Source of the DNA: a virus
Taxonomy: Duplodnaviria > Heunggongvirae > Uroviricota > Caudoviricetes
DNA length: 31,126 nucleotides
Virus record (IMG/VR): IMGVR_UViG_2874968258_000011
Direction: 5' to 3' (one strand)
The notes beneath the pieces are model-generated. The model was given only the letters and a program-made list of their open reading frames with translations, was not told the origin of the DNA and made no database searches. Below are positions 1,128-31,126 of this stretch, in pieces. Within the stretch, counting starts at the first letter, position 1, and every line of letters begins with the position of its first letter. The position numbers and the translations under genes were made by a program.

Positions 1128-1631
1128 TTATTGATAGTGTTTTATGTTCAGATAATGCCCGATGACTTTGTCATGCAGCTCCACCGATTTTGAGAACGAC
1201 AGCGACTTCCGTCCCAGCCGTGCCAGGTGCTGCCTCAGATTCAGGTTATGCCGCTCAATTCGCTGCGTATATCGCTTGCTGATTACGTGCAGCTTTCCCT
1301 TCAGGCGGGATTCATACAGCGGCCAGCCATCCGTCATCCATATCACCACGTCAAAGGGTGACAGCAGGCTCATAAGACGCCCCAGCGTCGCCATAGTGCG
1401 TTCACCGAATACGTGCGCAACAACCGTCTTCCGGAGACTGTCATACGCGTAAAACAGCCAGCGCTGGCGCGATTTAGCCCCGACATAGCCCCACTGTTCG
1501 TCCATTTCCGCGCAGACGATGACGTCACTGCCCGGCTGTATGCGCGAGGTTACCGACTGCGGCCTGAGTTTTTTAAGTGACGTAAAATCGTGTTGAGGCC
1601 AACGCCCATAATGCGTGCAGTTGCCCGGCAT
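1128..1631 (-). CDS. insB: IS1 InsB (expressed as InsAB' by -1 frameshift at A6C)
   Basis: 167-aa ORF overlapping insA; TTAAAAAACTC slippery motif. Confidence 0.9.
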
Positions 1632-1825
1632 CCAACGCCATTCATGGCCATATCAATGATTTTCTGGTGCGTACCGGGTTGAGAAGCGGTGTAAGTGAAC
1701 TGCAGTTGCCATGTTTTACGGCAGTGAGAGCAGAGATAGCGCTGATGTCCGGCAGTGCTTTTGCCGTTACGCACCACCCCGTCAGTAGCTGAACAGGAGG
1801 GACAGCTGATAGAAACAGAAGCCAC
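1550..1825 (-). CDS. insA: IS1 InsA
   Basis: 91-aa [25 protein letters not shown]…. Confidence 0.9.
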
Positions 1826-2265
1826 TGGAGCACCTCAAAAACACCATCATACACTAAATCAGTAAGTTGGCAGCATCACCCTTCTGTGGTTATATTTATT
1901 TTCACCCAGCCAGTCAGTCTGGATATGGGCCAGTAGCAGTAGCGGGTGTGATAAATGGGGCCGTTAATGCCGTAAAAAGTAAGGGATTTGGCTCTGTACC
2001 TCGGTTCTGTTGTCTCAGGGCGTGCATCAGTCCACCGGATGCTGAGCCCCCCTTCAAACCGTGTGTCGGGTATGATGATGTCGTAGGGGCCAGCAACGGA
2101 ATATTCACCTGGCAGCGCATTCCTTACCCAGGCCAGGAAATCACTCTTAGTGTCAAAACGGATAACATCTTCAGGCAGAAAAGCACACCCAAAGCCGAAT
2201 GCGCCGGGTATCGCCAGACGGCTGAGGTGTACTGGCAATAGCGGACACTACCATTTGTTCTTTTT

Positions 2266-3084
2266 TTAAGCAGCCATCTGATGATATTTTTCCCTGAAGG
2301 CTGCCGGGGAGATATTCCCCAGACGAGAGTGACGACGCTGACGATTGTAGAAAATCTCAATGTATTCCCGTATTACTGAGATGGCTTCATCCCGGTTATT
2401 AAAACGATAGTGGCTCAGGCTCTCATTTTTCAGCGTTCCCCAGAAGCTTTCCATCGGAGCGTTGTCGTAACAGTTACCTTTACGCGACATTGATGTTTTC
2501 AGACCAGACTGCTCCTGTATGACCCGGTAATCGTATGCGCAGTACTGTGAACCTCGATCAGAGTGGTGGATTAGCCCGGCAGGTGGGCGCTGGCTCCTGA
2601 GCGCCATAAACAGGGCTTTACCTGTCAGCTCTTTTGTCATGCGCTCTCCCATGGCGTAGCCGACAATTTCGCACGTATAAACATCTTTGATGCCAGCGAG
2701 GTACAACCATCCCTCCTGTGTGGCAACATACGTCAGGTCCGCCACCCAGACCTGATTTGGTGCTGTAGGAGCGAACGTCTGGTTCAGCAGATTTGGCGCA
2801 ACTGGCAGATTGTGGTTCGAGTTCGTAGTCGCTCTGAACTTGCGTTTCTGCTTACAGCGTAGCCTTAGCTCCTTACGAAGACGTGCCAGTCGGTCACGAC
2901 CAACGATGATGCCATTCTCTGCCAGCTCCGTCTGGAGCCGCCGGGTTCCATATGTTTCGCGAGTGCGGATATGTGCCACCTTAATCTCCAGTTTTAGCCG
3001 CTCATCACTTTGTTTTCTGTCTGAGGGTTCATGCTGTACCCAGTTGTAATAACCGCTCCTGGATACACCAAATACCTGACACAT
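2266..3084 (-). CDS. IS600 OrfB (DDE transposase catalytic part; OrfAB by -1 frameshift)
   Basis: 272-aa ORF; A-run slippery site at end of orfA. Confidence 0.9.
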   Translation of the reverse strand: MCQVFGVSRSGYYNWVQHEPSDRKQSDERLKLEIKVAHIRTRETYGTRRLQTELAENGIIVGRDRLARLRKELRLRCKQKRKFRATTNSNHNLPVAPNLLNQTFAPTAPNQVWVADLTYVATQEGWLYLAGIKDVYTCEIVGYAMGERMTKELTGKALFMALRSQRPPAGLIHHSDRGSQYCAYDYRVIQEQSGLKTSMSRKGNCYDNAPMESFWGTLKNESLSHYRFNNRDEAISVIREYIEIFYNRQRRHSRLGNISPAAFREKYHQMAA

Positions 3085-3119
3085 CGCTTCAATGGGAAAT
3101 TGTTGTCGCCATTGTTCGA

Positions 3120-3422
3120 TTAACGCGTATTTTTCAGCGACTCCTGTGCAAAATACGCTGTTGCTTTTTTTAATATATCTCGCTCAAGGCGAGCTTCATT
3201 TAACGCCTTACGCAGTTGCAGAATTTCAGATTCCAGTTCAGCCACCGTGCGGGAACCAGGAGTACCGAGCCCTTTTCTGGCGGCGGTAACCCATTGTCCT
3301 AAAGTGCCTTCAGGAAGAGATAATCGGGAAGCGCCTTCACTGATCGAAAGTTGATTTTCAAGAACCGTTCTGACAGCTTCGGCTTTGAACTCTTTAGAGT
3401 AACGTTGGGTTTTTCTGCTCAT
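3120..3422 (-). CDS. IS600 OrfA (HTH transposase subunit)
   Basis: 100-aa ORF MSRKTQRYSKEFKAEAV…; variant with L at residue 21. Confidence 0.9.
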   Translation of the reverse strand: MSRKTQRYSKEFKAEAVRTVLENQLSISEGASRLSLPEGTLGQWVTAARKGLGTPGSRTVAELESEILQLRKALNEARLERDILKKATAYFAQESLKNTR

Positions 3423-3486
3423 TATTAGCTCCTTCTGATGCCATTCTATTTCAGGAAGGAGTGTCCGTTAAACTCAGGCTACCTCA

Positions 3487-3844
3487 TTCTGGCGAGTCGT
3501 TTTTTGGAGTGTTCGCGGGCTTTTTCCTCCGTCATCTGAATAATCAGCATATCAGCAGGATCGCAAATCACGTTGTAAATCACCCAGCCGTCAATCAGGC
3601 CGATAGTCTTGCCGGTTCGTGCCGGGCCAACAAATATCACTGCGTCGTATTCACGCGAGGCCAGGCAGTTCATCGGCTCAATAACATACGGTGCCACCAG
3701 CGGATCCCACGGGACTGAGTTCCCTGCCCCCATGGGCACCCGCATATACTGAGCAACGGCATCAGCAACCCGCATTCGTCTCGGTGCGCGAAGGATATAA
3801 CCTGAATCGGTTCGTGCTGCCTTTGCGGTTTCCTGATTCAGCAT
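3487..3844 (-). pseudogene. Terminase large subunit (gpA-like), N-terminal ~119 codons only; truncated at IS600
   Basis: ORF starts at stop of Nu1-like gene; pattern resembles lambda gpA N-terminus (W-D/E-x-L … Y-x-x-V … AR-x-G-x-T/SK); reading frame runs into IS600 end. Confidence 0.55.
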
Positions 3845-4338
3845 TACTCCTCCTGCTGTAATTCCTCCTCATCATCCGCACCTGCTTCAGTCACCCGCAG
3901 GGCTATCTGATCGCGCAGATCATCAATAATGGACTGAACACGGCTCACAGCGGCAGGCTGCAGACCGCAGTCACGTTCAAGAATATCCGGTAATGTCTCC
4001 AGCACCTGCACGACCGCTTTTGCCCAGATGGCAAACTCCCGTCTGACATCACTGGCCGGAATGAGTTGTGCCGTTTCCTGTTCGAACTTAAGACGCTCAC
4101 GTTCAGACTGATACCAGGCTTTGCGCTCATGCGCGTCCATTTCGCCTTCTGCAACCGGCGGTGGTAATGCCAGAAATGCCGACACAATATCAACCACCCG
4201 ATAAAGCTTGAGGTTGCTTTCATGCCCCCCTGCAACGGGTAGATTTTGCAGCCTTGCCGCAGCAGTCTGGCGATGTACACCTGACAGTGCCGCCAGTTGA
4301 CTGATATTCAGCGTCAGATTTTTTAACTCTCGATCCAT
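3844..4338 (-). CDS. Terminase small subunit (Nu1-like)
   Basis: 164-aa ORF with N-terminal HTH-like segment (LNISQLAALSGVHRQTAA), acidic C-terminus, immediately upstream of gpA-like ORF. Confidence 0.6.
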   Translation of the reverse strand: MDRELKNLTLNISQLAALSGVHRQTAAARLQNLPVAGGHESNLKLYRVVDIVSAFLALPPPVAEGEMDAHERKAWYQSERERLKFEQETAQLIPASDVRREFAIWAKAVVQVLETLPDILERDCGLQPAAVSRVQSIIDDLRDQIALRVTEAGADDEEELQQEE

Positions 4339-4481
4339 ACCCGCTCCAGAATGTTTTAAACATGCATCTTGCGAACAACTTTAGGCAAACGGTGTTAGTG
4401 ATGAACAAAAAACAATCAAAATTGTCAACGCCACGATGTTTGACCGTTATTTGCCATTTTCATGCCCGCTAAATACTTTCG

Positions 4482-4775
<294 letters not shown>

Positions 4776-4793
4776 CTACCATTTGTTCTTTTT

Positions 4794-5612
4794 TTAAGCA
4801 GCCATCTGATGATATTTTTCCCTGAAGGCTGCCGGGGAGATATTCCCCAGACGAGAGTGACGACGCTGACGATTGTAGAAAATCTCAATGTATTCCCGTA
4901 TTACTGAGATGGCTTCATCCCGGTTATTAAAACGATAGTGGCTCAGGCTCTCATTTTTCAGCGTTCCCCAGAAGCTTTCCATCGGAGCGTTGTCGTAACA
5001 GTTACCTTTACGCGACATTGATGTTTTCAGACCAGACTGCTCCTGTATGACCCGGTAATCGTATGCGCAGTACTGTGAACCTCGATCAGAGTGGTGGATT
5101 AGCCCGGCAGGTGGGCGCTGGCTCCTGAGCGCCATAAACAGGGCTTTACCTGTCAGCTCTTTTGTCATGCGCTCTCCCATGGCGTAGCCGACAATTTCGC
5201 ACGTATAAACATCTTTGATGCCAGCGAGGTACAACCATCCCTCCTGTGTGGCAACATACGTCAGGTCCGCCACCCAGACCTGATTTGGTGCTGTAGGAGC
5301 GAACGTCTGGTTCAGCAGATTTGGCGCAACTGGCAGATTGTGGTTCGAGTTCGTAGTCGCTCTGAACTTGCGTTTCTGCTTACAGCGTAGCCTTAGCTCC
5401 TTACGAAGACGTGCCAGTCGGTCACGACCAACGATGATGCCATTCTCTGCCAGCTCCGTCTGGAGCCGCCGGGTTCCATATGTTTCGCGAGTGCGGATAT
5501 GTGCCACCTTAATCTCCAGTTTTAGCCGCTCATCACTTTGTTTTCTGTCTGAGGGTTCATGCTGTACCCAGTTGTAATAACCGCTCCTGGATACACCAAA
5601 TACCTGACACAT
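4794..5612 (-). CDS. IS600 OrfB
   Basis: 272-aa ORF identical to copy 1. Confidence 0.9.
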   Translation of the reverse strand: MCQVFGVSRSGYYNWVQHEPSDRKQSDERLKLEIKVAHIRTRETYGTRRLQTELAENGIIVGRDRLARLRKELRLRCKQKRKFRATTNSNHNLPVAPNLLNQTFAPTAPNQVWVADLTYVATQEGWLYLAGIKDVYTCEIVGYAMGERMTKELTGKALFMALRSQRPPAGLIHHSDRGSQYCAYDYRVIQEQSGLKTSMSRKGNCYDNAPMESFWGTLKNESLSHYRFNNRDEAISVIREYIEIFYNRQRRHSRLGNISPAAFREKYHQMAA

Positions 5613-5647
5613 CGCTTCAATGGGAAATTGTTGTCGCCATTGTTCGA

Positions 5648-5950
5648 TTAACGCGTATTTTTCAGCGACTCCTGTGCAAAATACGCTGTTGCTTTTTTTA
5701 ATATATCTCGCTCAAGGCGAGCTTCATTTAACGCCTTACGCAGTTGCAGAATTTCAGATTCCAGTTCAGCCACCGTGCGGGAACCAGGAGTACCGAGCCC
5801 TTTTCTGGCGGCGGTAACCCATTGTCCTAAAGTGCCTTCAGGAAGAGATAATCGGGAAGCGCCTTCACTGATCGAAAGTTGATTTTCAAGAACCGTTCTG
5901 ACAGCTTCGGCTTTGAACTCTTTAGAGTAACGTTGGGTTTTTCTGCTCAT
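5648..5950 (-). CDS. IS600 OrfA
   Basis: Identical to copy 1 OrfA (L variant). Confidence 0.9.
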   Translation of the reverse strand: MSRKTQRYSKEFKAEAVRTVLENQLSISEGASRLSLPEGTLGQWVTAARKGLGTPGSRTVAELESEILQLRKALNEARLERDILKKATAYFAQESLKNTR

Positions 5951-6014
5951 TATTAGCTCCTTCTGATGCCATTCTATTTCAGGAAGGAGTGTCCGTTAAA
6001 CTCAGGCTACCTCA

Positions 6015-6549
6015 TGGCTTCCTCTCTGTTCATCGGCAGATAGCCTATTTCATCCAGGATCAACACCCGGGCATAACTCAGTTGCTGTAGCTGACGCTCC
6101 AGCCGGTTTTCCTGTTTCGCTTTCATCAGTGTCGCGATCAGTCTGTCCAGTGGCATAAACAGTACCCGATGTCCCGCATCCACCGCTTTCACGCCAAGAG
6201 CTATGGCCAGATGAGTTTTTCCGACACCAGGAGGGCCCAGCAGGATCACGTTTTCGCTGCGCTCCACGAACGCCAGACCAGCCAGTTCCCGGACAACCTT
6301 ACGGTCGATGCCCGGCTGGAAGGTAAAGTCGAACTGCTCCAGCGTTTTGACCCACGGCAGACGAGCCTGCTTCAGCCTGGACTCCATACCGCGCTGATGC
6401 CTGCCGTTCCATTCCTGCTGTAGCGCCATGCACAGGAACTCCCGGTAGTTCAGCTCTTTTTTAGCTGCCTGTTCCAGCAGGCTTTCAACGTGATAACTCA
6501 GATGCTCCATTTTCAGGCGACTCAGCAGGACTTCCAGTTCATGCATCAC
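6015..6549 (-). pseudogene. istB: istB N-terminal fragment (Walker A GPPGVGKT present)
   Basis: 180-aa ORF 6007..6549 whose last codons run into IS600. Confidence 0.8.
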
Positions 6550-7718
6550 AACAGCTCCTCATAGGCACTCAGTGGTCGATGTTCCACCTGACTGACCTGC
6601 TGCCAGAGCGGGGCGTGATGCTCCGGCACTGTCTGCCAGCCAGACGATGCTGAACAGAGGCGATGTGAGGCCACCAGTTTCTCATTACTGTAGATCCGCA
6701 ACTCGTCATCCAGCGATATTCGTATCGATACCGGCTGACCACACAGCGCTTCGGGAACGCTGTAACGATTACCACCAACCTCGATATAGCTGTCCCAGGA
6801 CACATGGCGGATATCGAAGTAACTGGTATCGAAGTCTGTATCCGGTAACGGCTGCAGATGTTCCTGCTCCAGCGCGAAGCGCTGTTCCGGCGTTTCTTTG
6901 AACTGGCGAAGCTCCCGTTTGTCAGCCACATCGGCTATCCATTGCTCCAGTTGTTGATTGACATGAGTGAAGCTGTCGAACCTGCGGTACCGGACGAAGA
7001 AGTTCTCCTTGAGGTATTTCACCATCCGCTCAACCTTACCTTTTGTTCTGGCCCTGCGTGGACGGCATGCCCGTGGCAGGAAGTTATAGTGGTCAGCCAG
7101 CAACAGGAATCCGGAGTTGAACACGACTTTCCCGTTGTTATTCTTCAGCACCGCAGCCTTCTGGTTATCAACCAGCACCGTTTTCACACAACCACCGAAG
7201 TAGCGGAAGGCGCGAACCAGTGATTCGTAGGTATGCTCAGCATCCTGTTTTGGTGCGGCGAAGACATGGAAGCTGCGGGAGAACCCCAGCGTATTAACCG
7301 CAAAGTTAACTTTGCACCGTTGCCCGGCAACCTCCACCTCAACTTCGCCCCAGTCATGCTGGAGCTGGTATCCAGGCTGAGTTTCGAAGCGAACTGTTCT
7401 TTTTGACGGACGCATTTTACGTTTGGGCTGGATGTAGTAACGCAGCATGGAACGTCCGCCCGTATAACCCATTGCCTTAATCTCCGCGAAGATAACCTCG
7501 CTATTCCAGACATTCTCTGCCAGGCGCATGTCGATGTAATCCATAAACGGTTTCAGCTTAACCATTTTGTGGCGGGTCTTTCTGGCTGGCGGTTCAGGGT
7601 ATTTGAGGTAGCGTCTGACCGTCCGTTCAGAGCAACCAATCTGAGTCGCAATATCGACGATGTACGCGCCCTGCTGGCGCATTTGCTTTATCATGTAAAA
7701 GTCCTCTCTGCTCAGCAT
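6546..7718 (-). CDS. istA: IS21-family transposase IstA
   Basis: 390-aa ORF with N-terminal HTH, overlapping istB start. Confidence 0.85.
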   Translation of the reverse strand: MLSREDFYMIKQMRQQGAYIVDIATQIGCSERTVRRYLKYPEPPARKTRHKMVKLKPFMDYIDMRLAENVWNSEVIFAEIKAMGYTGGRSMLRYYIQPKRKMRPSKRTVRFETQPGYQLQHDWGEVEVEVAGQRCKVNFAVNTLGFSRSFHVFAAPKQDAEHTYESLVRAFRYFGGCVKTVLVDNQKAAVLKNNNGKVVFNSGFLLLADHYNFLPRACRPRRARTKGKVERMVKYLKENFFVRYRRFDSFTHVNQQLEQWIADVADKRELRQFKETPEQRFALEQEHLQPLPDTDFDTSYFDIRHVSWDSYIEVGGNRYSVPEALCGQPVSIRISLDDELRIYSNEKLVASHRLCSASSGWQTVPEHHAPLWQQVSQVEHRPLSAYEELL

Positions 7719-8096
7719 GTTGATGTCCTTTCTGGTGTGAGAACCTTAAGGAAACAACATGTTGGGTGGAGCGGACAATCCAAATGGCGAATTACCGTCT
7801 TATATCACTGGCGCTGACAAAATCGACACCATAAAAATAAAACCACTGTAATATCAATCCATTACAGTAGTGGTGATGACGAATGAAATTTCAAAAACTA
7901 GCCTTTTTCCGCGCCGCTCCCGCCCCGTGGCAGGCCACCCCACCGGGAGGACCCGTCAGCCTGACAGCCATGACGAACGTCTGATACAGCGCCCTGCATG
8001 AATGACATCGGGATAATCCAGAAAGGAATAGCATCGTACCCACAAGAATCAGTGTAAGTGTCCTGTTTCTTCCACCCCCGCACAGGACTGGCGAGC

Positions 8097-8273
8097 ATGA
8101 GGGACAAACCCGCGAACCATAAACGCGGTAAAAACCCGGTGTGCATCGTTTTTGATTATTCCCGCACACTCGCGCAGAAGGAGTTCCCCGTCGGGCTACG
8201 GTCATGGTTAATACGGGAATACGGCGACGATACAGCGCATGATGTGTCAGGCTTGAATACCTTTATCCGTTAA
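8097..8273 (+). CDS. Hypothetical small protein (moron-like, opposite to lysis genes); start at internal ATG 8097
   Basis: ORF 8058..8273; followed by hairpin 8321-8344; position analogous to bor/ybcW-type genes downstream of Rz. Confidence 0.3.
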   Translation: MRDKPANHKRGKNPVCIVFDYSRTLAQKEFPVGLRSWLIREYGDDTAHDVSGLNTFIR

Positions 8274-8320
8274 AAGGGATATCAGTTAAGTTATCCCGTG
8301 TAGGGTATAAGCCATTATCA

Positions 8321-8348
8321 AAGCCACTCTGTAGGAAGTGGCTTTTGT
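8321..8348 (+). terminator. Candidate intrinsic terminator (stem AAGCCACT/AGTGGCTT then T-rich)
   Basis: 8-bp perfect inverted repeat; weak T-run. Confidence 0.35.
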
Positions 8349-8354
8349 AATGGC

Positions 8355-8380
8355 AATAAAAAGCCCCGCGAATGCGAGGC
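8355..8380 (-). terminator. Candidate intrinsic terminator downstream of Rz (stem GCCUCGC/GCGGGGC with one G-U, then U5)
   Basis: Hairpin plus A5 run on plus strand. Confidence 0.4.
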
Positions 8381-8554
8381 TAAATCCTGGTATTTGTAAT
8401 GACTGGCTCTTATCTCAACGCAGCCCCTTACCGCGCGCAAAATGCTCAATATCAAGCATCAGCAATGAGATGTTTAATCTGGATTCACTCCAGAAGTGAG
8501 CACCACCCTGTCTACAGAGCCAGATGTGAAGGATGATGAGTAAAATTATCGCTA

Positions 8555-9022
8555 TCATCGAAGGCATTGCGTCCTGATGTATTCCTGAAGCGTTCTCAGT
8601 GCTGTTTGGTCGCGGATAATTCCGTCCCGGATACCGAGAACGTTTCGTCCAGCAACTGGAGAGAGTTCGACGGTGGCATCATTGCCCATGCCGGAGGCGC
8701 TGGAGGTTTCGGCTGAGGATGGCACAGGGCATTTTCCTTTGACGAGCACCCGACCACCATTATCAAGCTTGCGCCGAAGAGCATCATTTTCAGCTTTCGC
8801 ATCAGCTAACTCCTTCGTGTATTTAGCATCGAGTGCATCAGCATCACGCTGGCGCTGCTGCATGTCAGTAATGGTTGCGTTCGCCAGCTTCAGTTCTCTT
8901 GCGTTTTTGTCGCGCTGCTCTTTGTAGGTAATGGCGTTATCACGGTAATGATTAACAGCCCATGACAGGCGGACGATGATGCAGATAACCAGAGCGGAGA
9001 TAATCGCGGTGACTCTGCTCAT
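8555..9022 (-). CDS. Rz: Spanin inner-membrane subunit Rz
   Basis: [17 protein letters not shown]…[11 protein letters not shown]… resembles lambda/P21 Rz; start overlaps R stop (ATGA). Confidence 0.9.
8596..8802 (-). CDS. Rz1: Spanin outer-membrane lipoprotein Rz1, embedded in +1 frame of Rz
   Basis: ORF with lipobox VVGC and proline-rich stretch [11 protein letters not shown], wholly inside Rz. Confidence 0.8.
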
Positions 9023-9516
9023 TGCTGCCCCCACAAACAGACTTCACGCTCAATCTCACGACGGGTCATCAGCCCTTTCCATTGCTTACCGCCAGCATAT
9101 GTCCAGCGACGTAGCTGGTCACATGCGCCTTTGATATAGCCCTGGTTTATTTTGCGAAGAAGCGTCGATGTTCTGAAATTGCCAGCGCCCACGTTGTAAA
9201 CGAACGAGTAAAGAGCGCCGCGCGTTGTTTCCGGTATATCGACTTTGATGTACGGGTTAATTTGTCTGGCGACAGTGGCAAGGTCTTTATTCAGGAGAGC
9301 TTTGCATTCTGCTTCGGTATACGTTTTACCAGGCATGATGTCTTTTCCGGTGTGTCCGTGACATACAGTCCATACACCAATGATATCTTTGTATGGTATG
9401 TAGCTGACACCTTCCAGACCATCGTTACCACCTGGGCCAGTGATTAACACAGATGCTATAGCAACAGCCCCGCCACCAATAGCAACTGCAACAGCCTTGC
9501 GTAATGATGGCGACAT
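9019..9516 (-). CDS. R: SAR endolysin (phage lysozyme R, P21 type)
   Basis: 165-aa ORF; N-terminal Gly/Ala-rich signal-anchor-release segment; lysozyme-like body. Confidence 0.9.
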
Positions 9517-9731
9517 TATTCACCTCTCGCAGCCTTACGCTTATCTTCTCTTATTTTGAAATACAGATTCGTCAGATAAGTCAGAAGCCCCAGAAGCAGA
9601 CTTCCCAGCACACCAATCGCAGCCCACTGTGATGGACTGACCTGATCCAACCACTGCAAAAACCAGTAGCCGGCACTGCCGGCGGAGGTGCCGTAGGCAA
9701 TGCCCGTTGAAATTTTGTCCATGGATTTCAT
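9516..9731 (-). CDS. S: Pinholin S (P21 type), dual-start motif MKSM
   Basis: 71-aa [31 protein letters not shown]…; GGAGG RBS; ORF-track start at 9893 is an upstream extension into IS600. Confidence 0.85.
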
Positions 9732-9908
9732 AGCCTCACCTCCGCAAATAACGGATGGCGTAGTTTTACACTGAGAAATGAAAGGGATTTGAAAAGAAAA
9801 AAACGCAAAAGCGGGCGAAACGATATATACAGTAAGGAAAGCACTGAGGTAGCCTGAGTTTAACGGACACTCCTTCCTAAAATAGAATGGCATCAGAAGG
9901 AGCTAATA

Positions 9909-10211
9909 ATGAGCAGAAAAACCCAACGTTACTCTAAAGAGTTCAAAGCCGAAGCTGTCAGAACGGTTCCTGAAAATCAACTTTCGATCAGTGAAGGCGC
10001 TTCCCGATTATCTCTTCCTGAAGGCACTTTAGGACAATGGGTTACCGCCGCCAGAAAAGGGCTCGGTACTCCTGGTTCCCGCACGGTGGCTGAACTGGAA
10101 TCTGAAATTCTGCAACTGCGTAAGGCGTTAAATGAAGCTCGCCTTGAGCGAGATATATTAAAAAAAGCAACAGCGTATTTTGCACAGGAGTCGCTGAAAA
10201 ATACGCGTTAA
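9909..10211 (+). CDS. IS600 OrfA (P variant at residue 21)
   Basis: 100-aa ORF. Confidence 0.9.
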   Translation: MSRKTQRYSKEFKAEAVRTVPENQLSISEGASRLSLPEGTLGQWVTAARKGLGTPGSRTVAELESEILQLRKALNEARLERDILKKATAYFAQESLKNTR

Positions 10212-10302
10212 TCGAACAATGGCGACAACAATTTCCCATTGAAGCGATGTGTCAGGTATTTGGTGTATCCAGGAGCGGTTATTACAACTGGGTATGAAGT
10301 GG

Positions 10303-11471
<1,169 letters not shown>

Positions 11472-12542
11472 TGGAGCACCTGTGTTGTTCTGAGGTGAGC
11501 ATATCACCTCTGTTCAGGTGGCCAAATTCAGTGTGCCACTTCAGTACAGCATGAACCCTCAGACAGAAAACAAAGTGATGAGCGGCTAAAACTGGAGATT
11601 AAGGTGGCACATATCCGCACTCGCGAAACATATGGAACCCGGCGGCTCCAGACGGAGCTGGCAGAGAATGGCATCATCGTTGGTCGTGACCGACTGGCAC
11701 GTCTTCGTAAGGAGCTAAGGCTACGCTGTAAGCAGAAACGCAAGTTCAGAGCGACTACGAACTCGAACCACAATCTGCCAGTTGCGCCAAATCTGCTGAA
11801 CCAGACGTTCGCTCCTACAGCACCAAATCAGGTCTGGGTGGCGGACCTGACGTATGTTGCCACACAGGAGGGATGGTTGTACCTCGCTGGCATCAAAGAT
11901 GTTTATACGTGCGAAATTGTCGGCTACGCCATGGGAGAGCGCATGACAAAAGAGCTGACAGGTAAAGCCCTGTTTATGGCGCTCAGGAGCCAGCGCCCAC
12001 CTGCCGGGCTAATCCACCACTCTGATCGAGGTTCACAGTACTGCGCATACGATTACCGGGTCATACAGGAGCAGTCTGGTCTGAAAACATCAATGTCGCG
12101 TAAAGGTAACTGTTACGACAACGCTCCGATGGAAAGCTTCTGGGGAACGCTGAAAAATGAGAGCCTGAGCCACTATCGTTTTAATAACCGGGATGAAGCC
12201 ATCTCAGTAATACGGGAATACATTGAGATTTTCTACAATCGTCAGCGTCGTCACTCTCGTCTGGGGAATATCTCCCCGGCAGCCTTCAGGGAAAAATATC
12301 ATCAGATGGCTGCTTAAAAAAAGAACAAATGGTAGTGTCCGCTATTGCCAGTACACCTCACACTCTATCCAACAAACCACCCACAGTTAATCGGAATAAA
12401 AGCAGAGTGCTTATGAATGATCGCACGCCCGAAGGTTAGTATTTCTGCACAGCAATTTTGCAAAAAAAGGCGATCATTCATAACTTAAACGTCTTTCAGT
12501 CACTCCGGGATTTCCCATCATCGCAGACTGAAAGACTCTGAC

Positions 12543-12617
<75 letters not shown>

Positions 12618-12620
12618 ATA

Positions 12621-12696
<76 letters not shown>

Positions 12697-12698
12697 GC

Positions 12699-12775
12699 TG
12701 GCCCACCACCGAGGACTCGAACCTCGCACCGTCAACTTAGAAGGTTGATGCTCTATCCGGATGAGCTAGTGGTGG
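12699..12775 (-). tRNA. tRNA-Arg (anticodon UCU); unusual C1:G72
   Basis: Acceptor CCACCAC/GTGGTGG, anticodon loop CTTCTAA, T-arm CGAGGTTCGAGTCCTCG, CCA. Confidence 0.75.
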
Positions 12776-12776
12776 T

Positions 12777-12853
12777 TGGTGGCCCTTGCTGGACTTGAAC
12801 CAGCGACCTGGCGATTATGAGTCGCTCGCTCTGACCAACTGAGCTAAAGGGCC
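12777..12853 (-). tRNA. tRNA with CAU anticodon, ileX-like (Ile2/lysidine type; elongator Met not excluded)
   Basis: GGCCCTTTAGCTCAG…GACTCATAATCGCC…GGTTCAAGTCCAGCAAGGGCCACCA. Confidence 0.75.
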
Positions 12854-12940
12854 GGAGGCAGAATAATAACCATATGTCATCACATCTGCAAACTCATCTG
12901 ACCACCAGCACGTTTAACGTCCTGTGCCGTTTTTCAGGTA

Positions 12941-12966
12941 TAAAAAAACCCGCATAAAGCGGGCTC
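12941..12966 (-). terminator. Intrinsic terminator between Q-like gene and tRNA cluster (candidate tR')
   Basis: Minus strand stem CCCGC, loop UUUAU, stem GCGGG, then U7. Confidence 0.55.
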
Positions 12967-13042
12967 TTTCAAATGTCCATGTCTGCTATTCGCCTCGCGG
13001 TACAGCTTTGCGAAGCGTACAAGAATTGAAGCAGTTTTTACG

Positions 13043-13597
13043 TCAAAAAGCAATAACTTTTTTCTCTATACCAAAAGCCATAACCATTGGTTTGTACAAA
13101 ATAAATTCTGCCACCTTTAGCCAATGCTCAATGCGTCTTTCACAGGTTCTTAAACTCCATTTCGGGTGTGCATCATTCAGCAGTTCAGCCATTTTGCGTT
13201 TGGTCATCCCCCGCCCCTCATACCGTTGCCGAAGGACGCTAATCAATCCTGGATGCTCTGCCAGCACCTCACTTATGACCCGATCAATACATAACGCCTC
13301 TGCATCAGTACAATGCGCCAGCCAGCTCTTTTGCTTACCGTTAATCATATCCCGCAAAAAAGCCTCAAGTTCAGACTTGTTCAGACCTGCTTTTTTCATC
13401 CTCCGGAGCGCCTCGTTAATTGCCGTTTTTGTCAGCTTTTTAGAGGTCAACATCAGGTTAAACATATTCCCCGTCTTACCGCCACCAATATACGACCAGC
13501 GCCCCCACATACGTAGTTTTCCCTGAATCCAGACACTTTCCAGCGTGGTGAGACGAAGGTGTTCTCCGCTTTTTCCTGTATTCGTTGGGTAAATCAT
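13043..13597 (-). CDS. Putative late antiterminator (Q-like)
   Basis: 184-aa ORF from internal ATG with AGGAGG RBS; positioned immediately upstream of terminator, tRNAs and lysis genes; family not verified. Confidence 0.5.
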   Translation of the reverse strand: MIYPTNTGKSGEHLRLTTLESVWIQGKLRMWGRWSYIGGGKTGNMFNLMLTSKKLTKTAINEALRRMKKAGLNKSELEAFLRDMINGKQKSWLAHCTDAEALCIDRVISEVLAEHPGLISVLRQRYEGRGMTKRKMAELLNDAHPKWSLRTCERRIEHWLKVAEFILYKPMVMAFGIEKKVIAF

Positions 13598-13884
13598 AAA
13601 TATCCCTCCTTTCTCCAGATTTCTTGTGTGCGAAAAACACCTTCTGCATGCATCAGGCGTAATTCTTCTTTGGTGTAATCGCTGGTTTTTACCCGCCCGT
13701 CGATTAAATCGTGGCACGAGCTACAGGCAATCGCTGCCTGCATATCGTGTGGCTTTATCGCTGTTCCGCACGTTCCCGCCAGTCGGTAATGCGCCAGCAC
13801 AGACGTTTCCGGATCGTGATTGCAGTAGCCAGGAATTCTGACGGTGCACATCTGCCCCCGCGCCGCTTTACGTAAATCCACCAT
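13594..13884 (-). CDS. ybcO: YbcO-like (DUF1364) putative nuclease
   Basis: 96-aa ORF MVDLRKAARGQMCTVRIPGYCN…ETSVLAH…; Cys-rich. Confidence 0.7.
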   Translation of the reverse strand: MVDLRKAARGQMCTVRIPGYCNHDPETSVLAHYRLAGTCGTAIKPHDMQAAIACSSCHDLIDGRVKTSDYTKEELRLMHAEGVFRTQEIWRKEGYL

Positions 13885-17319: not shown

Positions 17320-17681
17320 GCCGTAGCCCCTTCTTGATATTTTTCAAACCAGAACACAACCGGGTCAGATTTCATTTCAACCAATCCCATACGAACCAGC
17401 GCTTTGCCTTTCCCGGACGCAAGGAATTCACGACGACCATCACTGATAATTCGTCGATAATCTTCCAGGCTACTGCAATGCTTGTGCAGATTGCATGGGT
17501 GGCATGCTGGTACCATGTTGGATATATCGTCACGTTCCTGGTGAAGCATATTTCCATCAAAACGAATGACCGGTTTTACATGGTCTGCATGCCACTTTTC
17601 GCCAAGTTCGCAGCCGCAATAAGCGCAGCGACCACCGAACTTCATGCGCAGTTCTGCACGTTGTTTTTTCGTCAGTGCCAT
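17316..17681 (-). CDS. HNH endonuclease
   Basis: CAYCGCEL…WHADHVKP…CHPCNLHK zinc-finger/HNH motif; start at internal ATG with AAGGA RBS. Confidence 0.75.
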   Translation of the reverse strand: MALTKKQRAELRMKFGGRCAYCGCELGEKWHADHVKPVIRFDGNMLHQERDDISNMVPACHPCNLHKHCSSLEDYRRIISDGRREFLASGKGKALVRMGLVEMKSDPVVFWFEKYQEGATA

Positions 17682-17682
17682 A

Positions 17683-17901
17683 TCAGCTTTCCTTATACGG
17701 ATTAATTTTATTGTGCAGTGTGTTGAATGACGCCCATACCACGTCGTTATACAATTCAATAACTGGCTCAATTATTTTTCCGATTATCCAGACAAAAATT
17801 AGCGGGGATATCGGTGTCATCAACACGATAAACAGAATGAGAAACAGGAATTCTGTTGTTCTACTCTTTCGCGGATATTTTTTTCTAAATAATGTAACCA
17901 T
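17683..17901 (-). CDS. Hypothetical small membrane protein
   Basis: 72-aa ORF with hydrophobic segment FLFLILFIVLMTPISPLIFVWIIG; ends 2 nt before HNH start. Confidence 0.35.
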   Translation of the reverse strand: MVTLFRKKYPRKSRTTEFLFLILFIVLMTPISPLIFVWIIGKIIEPVIELYNDVVWASFNTLHNKINPYKES

Positions 17902-17993
17902 TCATTACCGCCCTTTCGAGCGGTCTCCTGATGATTTGAGGGTGCAGAAATCCCTCCGGTTAAGGATTAAATTTTTAACAGTGCTAAATTTAA

Positions 17994-18334
17994 TTATTCA
18001 GTTCTGGATTTTGTCGCCCTGCGTATCCGCGCTTTCGCGTTACGCTCAATCTGTATCAGCTTTTCTATATTTCTCCGCCTTTCCTGTTCCTCCTGGCGCA
18101 ATAGCCTTACATCATCTGCCAGTCTGGTTTCTCTTTTTGCCACAGAGAGCATCCAGTCAAACGGCTCCACAACCGCACCGCAGATTTTACAGCGGACCTG
18201 ACGCTCTTTTTCGTCAACCCGGACAGAGGCGTGATGGCAATATGGTCTTTCCGATGGTTCATAAAGAAAATTAACCTGATTACGTGGGTCATCCTCTTTT
18301 ACCGGAAATAAAACGATATTGCTTAACTCATCTT
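17994..18334 (-). pseudogene. 5'-truncated gene remnant (Cys/His then charged helical tail), cut by IS1 copy C
   Basis: Open frame …RPYCHHASVRVDEKERQVRCKICGAVVEPFDWMLSVAKRETRLADDVRLLRQEEQERRRN… continues without start codon into IS1 end. Confidence 0.35.
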
Positions 18335-18389
18335 GGTGATGCTGCCAACTTACTGATTTAGTGTATGATGGTGTTTTTGAGGTGCTCCA

Positions 18390-18665
18390 GTGGCTTCTGT
18401 TTCTATCAGCTGTCCCTCCTGTTCAGCTACTGACGGGGTGGTGCGTAACGGCAAAAGCACTGCCGGACATCAGCGCTATCTCTGCTCTCACTGCCGTAAA
18501 ACATGGCAACTGCAGTTCACTTACACCGCTTCTCAACCCGGTACGCACCAGAAAATCATTGATATGGCCATGAATGGCGTTGGATGCCGGGCAACTGCAC
18601 GCATTATGGGCGTTGGCCTCAACACGATTTTACGTCACTTAAAAAACTCAGGCCGCAGTCGGTAA
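18390..18665 (+). CDS. insA: IS1 InsA
   Basis: 91-aa ORF. Confidence 0.9.
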
Positions 18666-19087
18666 CCTCGCGCATACAGCCGGGCAGTGACGTCATCGTC
18701 TGCGCGGAAATGGACGAACAGTGGGGCTATGTCGGGGCTAAATCGCGCCAGCGCTGGCTGTTTTACGCGTATGACAGTCTCCGGAAGACGGTTGTTGCGC
18801 ACGTATTCGGTGAACGCACTATGGCGACGCTGGGGCGTCTTATGAGCCTGCTGTCACCCTTTGACGTGGTGATATGGATGACGGATGGCTGGCCGCTGTA
18901 TGAATCCCGCCTGAAGGGAAAGCTGCACGTAATCAGCAAGCGATATACGCAGCGAATTGAGCGGCATAACCTGAATCTGAGGCAGCACCTGGCACGGCTG
19001 GGACGGAAGTCGCTGTCGTTCTCAAAATCGGTGGAGCTGCATGACAAAGTCATCGGGCATTATCTGAACATAAAACACTATCAATAA
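18584..19087 (+). CDS. insB: IS1 InsB
   Basis: 167-aa ORF. Confidence 0.9.
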
Positions 19088-19164
19088 GTTGGAGTCATTA
19101 TGAGGTAGCCTGAGTTTAACGGACACTCCTTCCTGAAATAGAATGGCATCAGAAGGAGCTAATA

Positions 19165-19467
19165 ATGAGCAGAAAAACCCAACGTTACTCTAAAGAGTTC
19201 AAAGCCGAAGCTGTCAGAACGGTTCCTGAAAATCAACTTTCGATCAGTGAAGGCGCTTCCCGATTATCTCTTCCTGAAGGCACTTTAGGACAATGGGTTA
19301 CCGCCGCCAGAAAAGGGCTCGGTACTCCTGGTTCCCGCACGGTGGCTGAACTGGAATCTGAAATTCTGCAACTGCGTAAGGCGTTAAATGAAGCTCGCCT
19401 TGAGCGAGATATATTAAAAAAAGCAACAGCGTATTTTGCACAGGAGTCGCTGAAAAATACGCGTTAA
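19165..19467 (+). CDS. IS600 OrfA (P variant)
   Basis: 100-aa ORF. Confidence 0.9.
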   Translation: MSRKTQRYSKEFKAEAVRTVPENQLSISEGASRLSLPEGTLGQWVTAARKGLGTPGSRTVAELESEILQLRKALNEARLERDILKKATAYFAQESLKNTR

Positions 19468-19502
19468 TCGAACAATGGCGACAACAATTTCCCATTGAAG
19501 CG

Positions 19503-20321
19503 ATGTGTCAGGTATTTGGTGTATCCAGGAGCGGTTATTACAACTGGGTACAGCATGAACCCTCAGACAGAAAACAAAGTGATGAGCGGCTAAAACTGGA
19601 GATTAAGGTGGCACATATCCGCACTCGCGAAACATATGGAACCCGGCGGCTCCAGACGGAGCTGGCAGAGAATGGCATCATCGTTGGTCGTGACCGACTG
19701 GCACGTCTTCGTAAGGAGCTAAGGCTACGCTGTAAGCAGAAACGCAAGTTCAGAGCGACTACGAACTCGAACCACAATCTGCCAGTTGCGCCAAATCTGC
19801 TGAACCAGACGTTCGCTCCTACAGCACCAAATCAGGTCTGGGTGGCGGACCTGACGTATGTTGCCACACAGGAGGGATGGTTGTACCTCGCTGGCATCAA
19901 AGATGTTTATACGTGCGAAATTGTCGGCTACGCCATGGGAGAGCGCATGACAAAAGAGCTGACAGGTAAAGCCCTGTTTATGGCGCTCAGGAGCCAGCGC
20001 CCACCTGCCGGGCTAATCCACCACTCTGATCGAGGTTCACAGTACTGCGCATACGATTACCGGGTCATACAGGAGCAGTCTGGTCTGAAAACATCAATGT
20101 CGCGTAAAGGTAACTGTTACGACAACGCTCCGATGGAAAGCTTCTGGGGAACGCTGAAAAATGAGAGCCTGAGCCACTATCGTTTTAATAACCGGGATGA
20201 AGCCATCTCAGTAATACGGGAATACATTGAGATTTTCTACAATCGTCAGCGTCGTCACTCTCGTCTGGGGAATATCTCCCCGGCAGCCTTCAGGGAAAAA
20301 TATCATCAGATGGCTGCTTAA
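19503..20321 (+). CDS. IS600 OrfB
   Basis: 272-aa ORF. Confidence 0.9.
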   Translation: MCQVFGVSRSGYYNWVQHEPSDRKQSDERLKLEIKVAHIRTRETYGTRRLQTELAENGIIVGRDRLARLRKELRLRCKQKRKFRATTNSNHNLPVAPNLLNQTFAPTAPNQVWVADLTYVATQEGWLYLAGIKDVYTCEIVGYAMGERMTKELTGKALFMALRSQRPPAGLIHHSDRGSQYCAYDYRVIQEQSGLKTSMSRKGNCYDNAPMESFWGTLKNESLSHYRFNNRDEAISVIREYIEIFYNRQRRHSRLGNISPAAFREKYHQMAA

Positions 20322-20364
20322 AAAAAGAACAAATGGTAGTGTCCGCTATTGCCAGTACACCTCA

Positions 20365-21495: not shown

Positions 21496-22033
21496 GGTCT
21501 GTTACCCCCTGAAGCCTGGCGGGATCGCACTGTCCGGCAACGAGACGGTGTTAACCTGTCGGAGCAACGTCTCAGGCCGAACACCTTTCGGCGCGAACAG
21601 ACCCTGGTATTCATTGGCGATGCTGTGTCGAATCACCTGCTCAGGTGTAAAACCCTGCTGACGGAATTTTTCCAGTTCCCGTATCGCCCCGTTAGCGCCC
21701 TGCTCCGTTCGAATCGGTTTTCGCAATGCCTGCCTGAACTGGACCCACTCATGCCAGAGTGTTTCTGGCAACCAGTCGGGCAGATCAACTGACAACGGGT
21801 CAAATTTTTTCTGGCGAACAGCCCCACCGATAACCAGAATTCCCTGCTCGGTGTGCCTTGCGATATCACTGCGCCGCAAGACACATATCCCGGTTTCAAC
21901 AGCACCGATTTTGAGCAGTGATTTCTGTCGCGGAGAATTTCGGTCAAGCTCGCTCCCACACCGGACACCGTTCCTGTCAGTCACGACGATTGAGGTGTAC
22001 TGGCAATAGCGGACACTACCATTTGTTCTTTTT

Positions 22034-22852
22034 TTAAGCAGCCATCTGATGATATTTTTCCCTGAAGGCTGCCGGGGAGATATTCCCCAGACGAGAGTGA
22101 CGACGCTGACGATTGTAGAAAATCTCAATGTATTCCCGTATTACTGAGATGGCTTCATCCCGGTTATTAAAACGATAGTGGCTCAGGCTCTCATTTTTCA
22201 GCGTTCCCCAGAAGCTTTCCATCGGAGCGTTGTCGTAACAGTTACCTTTACGCGACATTGATGTTTTCAGACCAGACTGCTCCTGTATGACCCGGTAATC
22301 GTATGCGCAGTACTGTGAACCTCGATCAGAGTGGTGGATTAGCCCGGCAGGTGGGCGCTGGCTCCTGAGCGCCATAAACAGGGCTTTACCTGTCAGCTCT
22401 TTTGTCATGCGCTCTCCCATGGCGTAGCCGACAATTTCGCACGTATAAACATCTTTGATGCCAGCGAGGTACAACCATCCCTCCTGTGTGGCAACATACG
22501 TCAGGTCCGCCACCCAGACCTGATTTGGTGCTGTAGGAGCGAACGTCTGGTTCAGCAGATTTGGCGCAACTGGCAGATTGTGGTTCGAGTTCGTAGTCGC
22601 TCTGAACTTGCGTTTCTGCTTACAGCGTAGCCTTAGCTCCTTACGAAGACGTGCCAGTCGGTCACGACCAACGATGATGCCATTCTCTGCCAGCTCCGTC
22701 TGGAGCCGCCGGGTTCCATATGTTTCGCGAGTGCGGATATGTGCCACCTTAATCTCCAGTTTTAGCCGCTCATCACTTTGTTTTCTGTCTGAGGGTTCAT
22801 GCTGTACCCAGTTGTAATAACCGCTCCTGGATACACCAAATACCTGACACAT
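22034..22852 (-). CDS. IS600 OrfB
   Basis: 272-aa ORF. Confidence 0.9.
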   Translation of the reverse strand: MCQVFGVSRSGYYNWVQHEPSDRKQSDERLKLEIKVAHIRTRETYGTRRLQTELAENGIIVGRDRLARLRKELRLRCKQKRKFRATTNSNHNLPVAPNLLNQTFAPTAPNQVWVADLTYVATQEGWLYLAGIKDVYTCEIVGYAMGERMTKELTGKALFMALRSQRPPAGLIHHSDRGSQYCAYDYRVIQEQSGLKTSMSRKGNCYDNAPMESFWGTLKNESLSHYRFNNRDEAISVIREYIEIFYNRQRRHSRLGNISPAAFREKYHQMAA

Positions 22853-22887
22853 CGCTTCAATGGGAAATTGTTGTCGCCATTGTTCGA

Positions 22888-23190
22888 TTAACGCGTATTT
22901 TTCAGCGACTCCTGTGCAAAATACGCTGTTGCTTTTTTTAATATATCTCGCTCAAGGCGAGCTTCATTTAACGCCTTACGCAGTTGCAGAATTTCAGATT
23001 CCAGTTCAGCCACCGTGCGGGAACCAGGAGTACCGAGCCCTTTTCTGGCGGCGGTAACCCATTGTCCTAAAGTGCCTTCAGGAAGAGATAATCGGGAAGC
23101 GCCTTCACTGATCGAAAGTTGATTTTCAGGAACCGTTCTGACAGCTTCGGCTTTGAACTCTTTAGAGTAACGTTGGGTTTTTCTGCTCAT
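22888..23190 (-). CDS. IS600 OrfA (P variant)
   Basis: 100-aa ORF. Confidence 0.9.
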   Translation of the reverse strand: MSRKTQRYSKEFKAEAVRTVPENQLSISEGASRLSLPEGTLGQWVTAARKGLGTPGSRTVAELESEILQLRKALNEARLERDILKKATAYFAQESLKNTR

Positions 23191-23980
23191 TATTAGCTCC
23201 TTCTGATGCCATTCTATTTCAGGAAGGAGTGTCCGTTAAACTCAGGCTACCTCAGATATCAATCCGCCCTCCGCAACCGTCACCACGCTCTGGCACCGGA
23301 TACTCACGACAGACATCCAGGCCAGCAGCCTGCAACGCAACCACCGCAGAATTACAAAATTCCGCTGCAGTACCGCCAGATAATCTCCCCTCAAGCACTC
23401 CAGCCACAAAATCCCGAAACTCCCTTCCGGAAGGGAAGGGTTTGGGATGGGTTAGATCTGTTTTTAGATCTTTATCTGTATCTTTATTAGTTGCCTTTGT
23501 GTTGGCATCATGTTCGAACATCACTCCAACATCTGTTTGAACACCTGTTAAATTTCTCTCTTGTTTTGTTTGAACATCTGCTTCCTTTCTGCTTCTTCTG
23601 GCCTGAACAGATGCTTTTCCTGCGGCTGATTTTTTGGTTAATTTTTCTCTGACAGATGCCAGATCTTCCTCAATCCGAAGATGCATCCATTCGTCGCCGT
23701 TATCACAAAAAAACTCCCGCAAGGATGGTTCAACATCAACCCATCGCTCGTTAGTCAGACGGGCAATTTTTGCCAACCTGTTTTTGGGTATTGGCTTTCC
23801 TGTTTGCCAGTAATTGAACATCAGCAACAAATACGCGCCGTGCTCCTCTGCTGACAAATGCATGGTGTCAGCCAGGTAATCAGCTATGTACAGTTGCATG
23901 TATGGTAATGCGGCCATAATTGCCCCGTATGATGCTGCCCGGTTGCTTAGAATAAGCACAAACAGCATGGAAACTTTTGC

Positions 23981-29240: not shown

Positions 29241-29435
29241 AAAAAAGAAAGCCTGCACACTGTGCAGGCCTGAGTGAAGAACCTGGGACATTTATTCATC
29301 ACTCGCAGTAATTTTAATCTGAGTTGAGGTTAAAAAACAATGAGCACCGATAAACAAGTTTACCCACTGTATGAGGTAGCCTGAGTTTAACGGACACTCC
29401 TTCCTGAAATAGAATGGCATCAGAAGGAGCTAATA

Positions 29436-29738
29436 ATGAGCAGAAAAACCCAACGTTACTCTAAAGAGTTCAAAGCCGAAGCTGTCAGAACGGTTCCTGA
29501 AAATCAACTTTCGATCAGTGAAGGCGCTTCCCGATTATCTCTTCCTGAAGGCACTTTAGGACAATGGGTTACCGCCGCCAGAAAAGGGCTCGGTACTCCT
29601 GGTTCCCGCACGGTGGCTGAACTGGAATCTGAAATTCTGCAACTGCGTAAGGCGTTAAATGAAGCTCGCCTTGAGCGAGATATATTAAAAAAAGCAACAG
29701 CGTATTTTGCACAGGAGTCGCTGAAAAATACGCGTTAA
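29436..29738 (+). CDS. IS600 OrfA (P variant)
   Basis: 100-aa ORF. Confidence 0.9.
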   Translation: MSRKTQRYSKEFKAEAVRTVPENQLSISEGASRLSLPEGTLGQWVTAARKGLGTPGSRTVAELESEILQLRKALNEARLERDILKKATAYFAQESLKNTR

Positions 29739-29773
29739 TCGAACAATGGCGACAACAATTTCCCATTGAAGCG

Positions 29774-30592
29774 ATGTGTCAGGTATTTGGTGTATCCAGG
29801 AGCGGTTATTACAACTGGGTACAGCATGAACCCTCAGACAGAAAACAAAGTGATGAGCGGCTAAAACTGGAGATTAAGGTGGCACATATCCGCACTCGCG
29901 AAACATATGGAACCCGGCGGCTCCAGACGGAGCTGGCAGAGAATGGCATCATCGTTGGTCGTGACCGACTGGCACGTCTTCGTAAGGAGCTAAGGCTACG
30001 CTGTAAGCAGAAACGCAAGTTCAGAGCGACTACGAACTCGAACCACAATCTGCCAGTTGCGCCAAATCTGCTGAACCAGACGTTCACTCCTACAGCACCA
30101 AATCAGGTCTGGGTGGCGGACCTGACGTATGTTGCCACACAGGAGGGATGGTTGTACCTCGCTGGCATCAAAGATGTTTATACGTGCGAAATTGTCGGCT
30201 ACGCCATGGGAGAGCGCATGACAAAAGAGCTGACAGGTAAAGCCCTGTTTATGGCGCTCAGGAGCCAGCGCCCACCTGCCGGGCTAATCCACCACTCTGA
30301 TCGAGGTTCACAGTACTGCGCATACGATTACCGGGTCATACAGGAGCAGTCTGGTCTGAAAACATCAATGTCGCGTAAAGGTAACTGTTACGACAACGCT
30401 CCGATGGAAAGCTTCTGGGGAACGCTGAAAAATGAGAGCCTGAGCCACTATCGTTTTAATAACCGGGATGAAGCCATCTCAGTAATACGGGAATACATTG
30501 AGATTTTCTACAATCGTCAGCGTCGTCACTCTCGTCTGGGGAATATCTCCCCGGCAGCCTTCAGGGAAAAATATCATCAGATGGCTGCTTAA
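29774..30592 (+). CDS. IS600 OrfB
   Basis: 272-aa ORF. Confidence 0.9.
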   Translation: MCQVFGVSRSGYYNWVQHEPSDRKQSDERLKLEIKVAHIRTRETYGTRRLQTELAENGIIVGRDRLARLRKELRLRCKQKRKFRATTNSNHNLPVAPNLLNQTFTPTAPNQVWVADLTYVATQEGWLYLAGIKDVYTCEIVGYAMGERMTKELTGKALFMALRSQRPPAGLIHHSDRGSQYCAYDYRVIQEQSGLKTSMSRKGNCYDNAPMESFWGTLKNESLSHYRFNNRDEAISVIREYIEIFYNRQRRHSRLGNISPAAFREKYHQMAA

Positions 30593-30635
30593 AAAAAGAA
30601 CAAATGGTAGTGTCCGCTATTGCCAGTACACCTCA

Positions 30636-31126
30636 TTGTGAATGTCAGAAGAAACCTGACGATACTTGATATGTTCGGTCCCCCAAAAACAAATGCCGGG
30701 ATCCGGACGGTAACATTACTGCAGCCGGCTCTTGAAGCACTGAAGGAGCAATACAAACTGACCGGGCATCATCGCAAAAGCGAAATCACTTTTTATCATC
30801 GGGAGTACGGCAGAACTGAAAAGCAAAAACTGCATTTTGTTTTCATGCCCAGGGTGTGTAACGAAAAACAGAAACCTTATTACTCGGTAAGCAGTTTGGG
30901 TGCAAGATGGAATGCAGCAGTAAAACGTGCTGGTATTCGCCGCCGTAATCCGTACCATACGCGACATACTTTTGCCTGCTGGCTGTTGACGGCAGGAGCG
31001 AACCCGGCATTTATAGCCAGCCAGATGGGGCATGAAACTGCGCAAATGGTGTATGAAATTTACGGTATGTGGATTGATGACATGAACGACGAACAGATAG
31101 CCATGTTGAATGCGCGGTTATCGTAG
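30636..31126 (+). pseudogene. Tyrosine integrase, C-terminal catalytic fragment (~164 codons)
   Basis: …YHTRHTFACWLL…GHETAQMVYEIYGMW contains the H-x-x-R and terminal Tyr region of tyrosine recombinases; begins at IS600 boundary, no start codon of its own. Confidence 0.7.

Follow-up and report, generated by a model that had tools for sequence, protein, structure and literature searches.

At the right end of the stretch of DNA analysed here (31,126 nucleotides in full, hereafter the window), a copy of the insertion sequence IS600 lies between a gene that breaks off shortly after its start and the 3′ end of a tyrosine integrase gene, which raises the question of what these two fragments are and how they came to flank a single mobile element. 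The window is a remnant of a Rac-type prophage at ttcA of Shigella sonnei and is heavily IS-ridden. Insertion sequences, among them IS1, IS600 and IS21, break up its prophage body (Table 1). The regions for lysis, replication and immunity are split by IS21, IS1, additional IS600 copies and an IS630-like transposase gene of the DDE_3 family, IS600 cuts the gene for the large terminase subunit after approximately 120 codons, and the late region (positions 1–13717) is mostly gone. The prophage is defunct in further ways, then, besides the damage to intR and xisR described below.

Both attachment sites lie outside the window, which is where the original prediction had proposed to look for them. 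No match to the 26-bp attP core of phage Rac-SA53 was found anywhere in the window when up to three mismatches were allowed; the integrase-proximal site, which Rac-SA53 has within the 5′ portion of ttcA, is beyond the window end, and the distal one must lie beyond position 1, since the terminase and tail-fibre assembly genes show that the window begins within the prophage.

Table 1. Annotated features of the window (positions counted from its first nucleotide)
Feature	Position	Strand	Basis or remark
Tail-fibre assembly gene	201–824		DUF4376
IS600 copy	2223–3486		
Large-terminase stub	3479–3844		cut by IS600
Small terminase gene	3844–4338		DUF1441
IS600 copy	4751–6014		
IS21 istA/istB	6007–7718		istB truncated by IS600
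Rz and lysozyme genes	8555–9516		
IS600 copy, split	9845–12361		contains the next element
Nested IS3-family element	10295–11543		1249 bp
Q-like antiterminator gene	13043–13717		
IS1	18335–19100		
IS600 copy	19101–20364		
IS600 copy	21991–23254		
racC-like gene, 91 aa	28965–29240	+	annotated racC or protein RacC in matching Rac-type phages; final intact early-left gene before the junction
Terminator-like hairpin, racC/recE intergenic	29249–29271	-	10-bp stem, then a T-run; function putative
recE ribosome-binding site GAGG	29326–29329	+	same sequence upstream of annotated recE in E. coli DEC5A
recE (exonuclease VIII) remnant	29340–29371	+	codons 1–10 and two bases; DNA identity, synteny
Junction IS600, 1264 bp	29372–30635	+	probable hybrid: left end from a recE insertion, right end from an intR insertion
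orfA, 100 aa	29436–29738		within the junction IS600
orfB, 272 aa	29774–30592		within the junction IS600
intR 3′ remnant, 491 nt	30636–31126	+	two bases of codon 249, codons 250–411, stop
Chimeric ORF, 168 aa	30620–31126	+	predicted; TTG start inside the IS600 right end, in frame into intR

Identity of the two gene fragments and of the element between them

The original prediction described a well-initiated open reading frame (GAGG, MSTDKQVYPL) that is cut after 10 codons and regarded it as an orphan gene start. The frame is indeed present, with GAGG preceding its ATG by 10 nt and with the native bases TA following MSTDKQVYPL up to IS600 (10 2/3 codons), and its parent gene can be named as recE, which encodes exonuclease VIII. 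At least 80% of the segment 29100–29371 of the window is matched in 1768 E. coli genomes; the best of these matches reach 99.6% DNA identity over 272 nt, and the ATG coincides with the annotated start of recE (exodeoxyribonuclease VIII). In intact genes, the native sequence past the break point continues as ...CCACTGTATTACGAAGC, whereas in the window the frame reads through the junction to give MSTDKQVYPLYEVA, a 14-residue peptide that ends in YEVA and is terminated by a TGA inside IS600 (29382–29384). E. coli genomes sharing this recE allele served as the reference for the left flank, and a megablast alignment to Rac-SA53 stopped 8 nt into the frame because the recE allele of Rac-SA53 diverges there. 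A full-length RecE homologue contains the Pfam domain Exonuc_VIII at residues 52–189 and a PDDEXK-like C-terminal nuclease domain at residues 861–1025, both of which are absent from the remnant. It had also been asked whether MSTDKQVYPL might be the N-terminus of an integrase or excisionase; this candidate was rejected, the peptide being the annotated RecE start in many E. coli genomes.

The racC-like gene upstream encodes a 91-residue protein that is found, with exactly the same sequence, in many Shigella and E. coli genomes, and the hairpin sequence between racC and recE also occurs in E. coli DEC5A. This terminator-like hairpin is on the minus strand, where no convergent gene is evident. 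An identical RacC, together with an uninterrupted recE start, was also observed in seven loci (L014–L020) that belong to a different prophage, which lies beside an ipaH-type (LRR_TTSS/NEL) effector gene near znuA in chromosomes that look like those of Shigella flexneri.

The right fragment is the 3′ end of intR, the integrase gene of the Rac prophage. All of its 491 nt agree (100% identity) with intR of the EIEC strain CFSAN029787, in which ttcA adjoins the gene, and its DNA identity to intR of Rac-SA53 is 98.4%. Intact IntR has 411 residues, and the break falls in codon 249, so that codons 1–248 are missing and 162 complete codons are kept (close to the approximately 164 that had been predicted), the stop codon being the final triplet of the window. 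The arm-binding domain (PF12167) of the intact protein occupies residues 5–69, the SAM-like core-binding domain residues 82–139 and the catalytic domain begins at residue 205; a fragment that starts at residue 249 therefore lacks both DNA-binding domains. It had been described as the catalytic C-terminus of an integrase. It corresponds, however, only to positions 64–165 of the 172 in the PF00589 profile, whereas the intact protein begins at profile position 6, and it is thus less than a full catalytic domain. Also lost is the box I catalytic arginine R231 (GLRHGEL, aligned to TGLRISEL of the Tn1549 integrase, 6emy), whose position precedes the break by 18 residues. The box II region with the R-H-T motif (...NPYHTRHTFACW...) and the C-terminal ...MVYEIYGMW... 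are kept and could be aligned to the same structure; the latter probably carries the tyrosine nucleophile of IntR, for which it is the candidate region.

The chimeric frame that enters intR from the right end of IS600 (Table 1) is a predicted open reading frame only, for which an alternative start, ATG at 30671, would give 151 residues. Public annotations of S. sonnei list proteins that exactly match the 168- and 151-residue products under the names 'putative transposase' or 'Phage integrase', and the exact 151-residue product was observed on hundreds of contigs.

The element between the two fragments starts with TGAGGTAG... and finishes with ...ACACCTCA, its inverted repeats ending in TG...CA, and is 99.7% identical to E. 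coli elements annotated as IS600. The Pfam domains HTH_Tnp_1 and rve match the identical orfA and orfB genes in CP044151.1 (locus L009). Among the uninterrupted IS600 copies of the window, the junction element is number five, as the original prediction had numbered it; with the copy that another IS splits (9845–12361) included, it becomes the sixth. No 3-bp duplication surrounds it, GTA being its left flank and TTG its right one, just as had been reported. Since two triplets would differ by chance alone in 63 of 64 cases, this mismatch is informative only because IS600 normally makes a 3-bp duplication, as is seen at two other copies in the window (TGG/TGG and GAT/GAT) and at the parental copies in sister genomes. 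The absent duplication is a reflection of the recombinant history of this copy and no argument against its identity as IS600.

Undeleted sister genomes and the origin of the junction

In relatives with intact genes, the recE and intR break points are 4586 bp (CFSAN029787) or 5718 bp (Rac-SA53) apart, and the interval contains the rest of recE, a recombination module consisting of gam and an AAA_24 ATPase gene or of recT and ralR, a DUF1187 gene, xisR and intR codons 1–248. Two other chromosomes retain this interval together with IS600 insertions at the very end points of the window junction. In S. sonnei strain 53G (lineage II; HE616528.1; PMC5447701; locus L007), intR carries a simple insertion in codon 249 (GGGAATTG, IS600 on the plus strand, TTGTGAATG) with TTG duplicated. 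To the left of this insertion, the strain retains a recE fragment, gam, the AAA_24 and DUF1187 genes, xisR and the 5′ part of intR. Removal of the element and of one TTG from this sequence restores a 411-residue IntR identical to that of CFSAN029787. Upstream of these genes, another plus-strand IS600 copy is followed at its right end by GTATTACGAAGC, at which recE resumes, with a GTA duplication. CP061367.1 (locus L022) has both insertions in full, that is, CCACTGTA, IS600, GTATTACGAAGC at 10408–11671 on the plus strand in recE codon 10 (GTA/GTA), and GGGAATTG, IS600, TTGTGAATG at 17342–18604 on the plus strand in intR (TTG/TTG). The two copies are 6934 bp apart from start to start with 5670 bp between them, a segment that is colinear with the recE...intR region of CFSAN029787 except for an extra IS600, and that is absent from both the window and CP044151.1. 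The latter is a complete chromosome listed as a record of its own; it matches the window at 100% identity for 8456 nt and extends into ttcA.

The IS600 copy of the window thus combines the left flank of the recE insertion with the right flank of the intR insertion, which is the product expected of recombination between direct repeats. It is very probable that two IS600 copies, one in recE and one in intR, recombined and that the intervening DNA was deleted in this process. The order of events can be inferred from extant genomes. An ancestor would have acquired two independent insertions of IS600 in the same orientation, one in recE after codon 10 (GTA duplicated) and one in intR codon 249 (TTG duplicated), and the integrase gene would accordingly have been broken by a simple insertion before any deletion took place. 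Homologous recombination between the direct repeats, presumably RecA-dependent and carried out by the host machinery, would then have excised the intervening DNA and one IS copy, leaving a single hybrid IS600 with the recE-side left flank ...CCACTGTA and the intR-side right flank TTGTGAATG.... Relative to CP061367.1, the loss would amount to 6934 bp, made up of the 5670 bp between the copies, which include a third, inverted IS600 in recE, and one IS copy; recE would already have been split by this inverted copy before the deletion. The genes lost would be the rest of recE, gam, the AAA_24 ATPase gene, the DUF1187 gene, xisR and intR codons 1–248. Taken together, the sister genomes with both duplication-bounded parental copies bear out the original view that the junction arose by deletion or rearrangement and not by simple insertion.

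The internal sequence of the element also contains a trace of both parents. At position 715 of IS600, A is shared by the hybrids, the intR copies of 53G and of locus L021 and the otherwise divergent intR copy of CP061367.1, and every other copy has G. At position 126, the recE copy of L021 and most other IS600 copies have C, and all intR copies examined as well as the recE copy of CP061367.1 have T. The window element carries C126 and A715, a chimera which, with two informative sites only and with position 126 polymorphic among recE copies, supports (weakly on its own) a crossover that would fall between positions 126 and 715. The intR copy of CP061367.1 shows approximately 30 differences from all other copies, clustered at positions 684–1101, in addition to a 1-nt deletion, which may reflect a divergent form of IS600, gene conversion or a fault in the assembly.

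Other routes to the same arrangement were considered. In a one-step adjacent deletion associated with transposition, a single IS600 in intR or recE would have attacked a nearby target on the same molecule without any second copy, which likewise leaves one IS with non-matching flanks. This seems very unlikely, considering that sister genomes carry IS600 at exactly both end points, each copy with an intact 3-bp duplication; such occupied end points are the substrate that recombination predicts, whereas under adjacent deletion they are an unnecessary coincidence. The surviving element, moreover, has A715, otherwise confined to intR copies, on its right and C126 on its left. Equally little credence can be given to an assembly artefact in which two identical 1.26-kb IS600 repeats were collapsed and racC-recE′ was falsely joined to intR′-ttcA. 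The IS600 copies of the genome differ by 0–2 nt and are collapsible in short-read assemblies, and most public contigs with these genes end at IS copies. The same junction is nevertheless present in CP044151.1, other complete S. sonnei genomes have related yet different deletions at the same IS, and locus L023 has C126 and A715 at the recE site with another right partner, which implies that the hybrid existed in an ancestor. That IS600 simply inserted into one gene and left an atypical duplication or none, the case in which both fragments would belong to one integrase and for which nothing speaks beyond their adjacency, can practically be dismissed, as the start is that of recE, the 3′ piece is that of intR and the break points are 4586–5718 bp apart in intact relatives.

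Under recombination between direct IS600 repeats, the deletion state of the window would be derived with respect to the undeleted state of its sister strains, and it is an instance of ordinary IS-driven prophage decay. Because the DNA-binding half of IntR, R231 and xisR have been lost, the Rac remnant should be unable to excise by its own functions. That the prophage would not be excisable by its own integrase was part of the original prediction, to which the loss of the arm- and core-binding domains, of the first catalytic arginine and of xisR now gives substance; judging from these sequences, the remnant appears to be locked in place.

Variation of IS600 junctions in Shigella sonnei

The junction between IS600 and the 3′ end of intR is kept in every examined S. 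sonnei genome that has the integrase fragment, and deletions of at least three further kinds have removed DNA on its left. A comparison of left partners across loci L005–L012, L021, L022 and L023, of which those that could be identified are S. sonnei, revealed at least four among the genomes examined: the 5′ part of intR, recE codon 10, a 'CGCGCTGCATAG' site and a 'GAAACAGAATAA' site. Most of the complete genomes that were read have the 'CGCGCTGCATAG' partner, strain 75/02 (lineage IIIc) among them. With so many left partners, the IS600 copies at this place must recombine repeatedly; the junction is a polymorphic IS600 recombination hotspot, whose deletion states could be usable as lineage markers. 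Locus L023 has racC-recE′-IS600 joined to a fragment of abgT, a sign of a larger deletion or of an inversion.

Whether the chimeric integrase fragment, or transcription running outward from IS600 toward ttcA, has been retained for a function was also considered. Modulation of ttcA expression and interference with incoming Rac-type integrases would be candidates, although such a role appears quite improbable, and simple protection from deletion by the adjoining ttcA is an alternative explanation for the retention of the junction.

Several other IS600 copies in the window (Table 1) have their own peculiarities. Matching 3-bp flanks were observed for two of the six copies (TGG/TGG and GAT/GAT) and mismatched flanks for the other four (GGC/TTC, CAC/ACT, TTA/TAG and GTA/TTG), which suggests that several copies took part in recombination or adjacent deletions. 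The split copy contains a nested IS3-family element with an apparent GTA duplication, the ends TGAAGTGG...CCACTTCA and a 279-residue rve ORF; this element may be IS911-like. IS1 at 18335–19100 abuts the IS600 copy at 19101–20364 with zero spacer. The counterpart of this copy in CP061367.1 is a simple insertion with a TAG/TAG duplication, and the window must therefore have undergone a further rearrangement on the left of that copy.

Among complete E. coli genomes, the recE/IS600/intR junction was found in none, the best match being a different but analogous event in strain FDAARGOS_943 (NZ_CP065615.1; locus L004). At 6069–8878, this genome, which carries many IS600 copies, has a truncated recE (540 nt), IS600 and integrase fragments in a prophage that adjoins ybhA, and the arrangement is a convergent event in a different prophage.

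Relation to known systems

In Shigella, the loss of DNA between homologous IS copies is a recognised process (PMC7373316). In topical literature searches, only this general process was found to be described and not the event that joins recE codon 10 to intR codon 249; the mechanism is already known, and the locus is a textbook instance of it. The value of the present analysis lies chiefly in annotation, in that the fragments can be named recE′ and intR′ instead of an orphan gene and a catalytic integrase. In addition, the locus provides an unusually clean example of how IS600 expansion has removed prophage DNA in S. sonnei, both parental insertions being preserved in sister strains.

As an element of the IS3 family, IS600 is like the junction copy in its length of 1264 bp, its TG...CA ends, orfA (HTH_Tnp_1) and orfB (rve), and the difference is that simple IS600 insertions have 3-bp duplications, whereas the junction copy, being a recombinant of two copies, is without one. 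The Rac prophage of E. coli K-12 and Rac-SA53 (intR-xisR-...-recT-recE-racC) occupies the same ttcA-side locus and has the same racC-recE...xisR-intR order as the window, and the intR of Rac-SA53 represents the same integrase (98.4% DNA identity). The recombination module of the window type is recE′-gam-AAA_24, as in EIEC CFSAN029787, and that of the K-12 Rac prophage and Rac-SA53 is recE-recT-ralR; compared with the latter two, the window is without the whole recombination module, xisR and 60% of intR. The closest parallel is offered by the IS-mediated deletions between direct IS repeats in Shigella (PMC7373316). As in the window, these start from directly oriented parental copies, remove the intervening DNA together with one IS and leave a hybrid IS whose flanks do not match. 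Each flank of the present hybrid corresponds to one half of a duplication-bounded insertion in relatives, and the event in the window does not differ in kind from those deletions.
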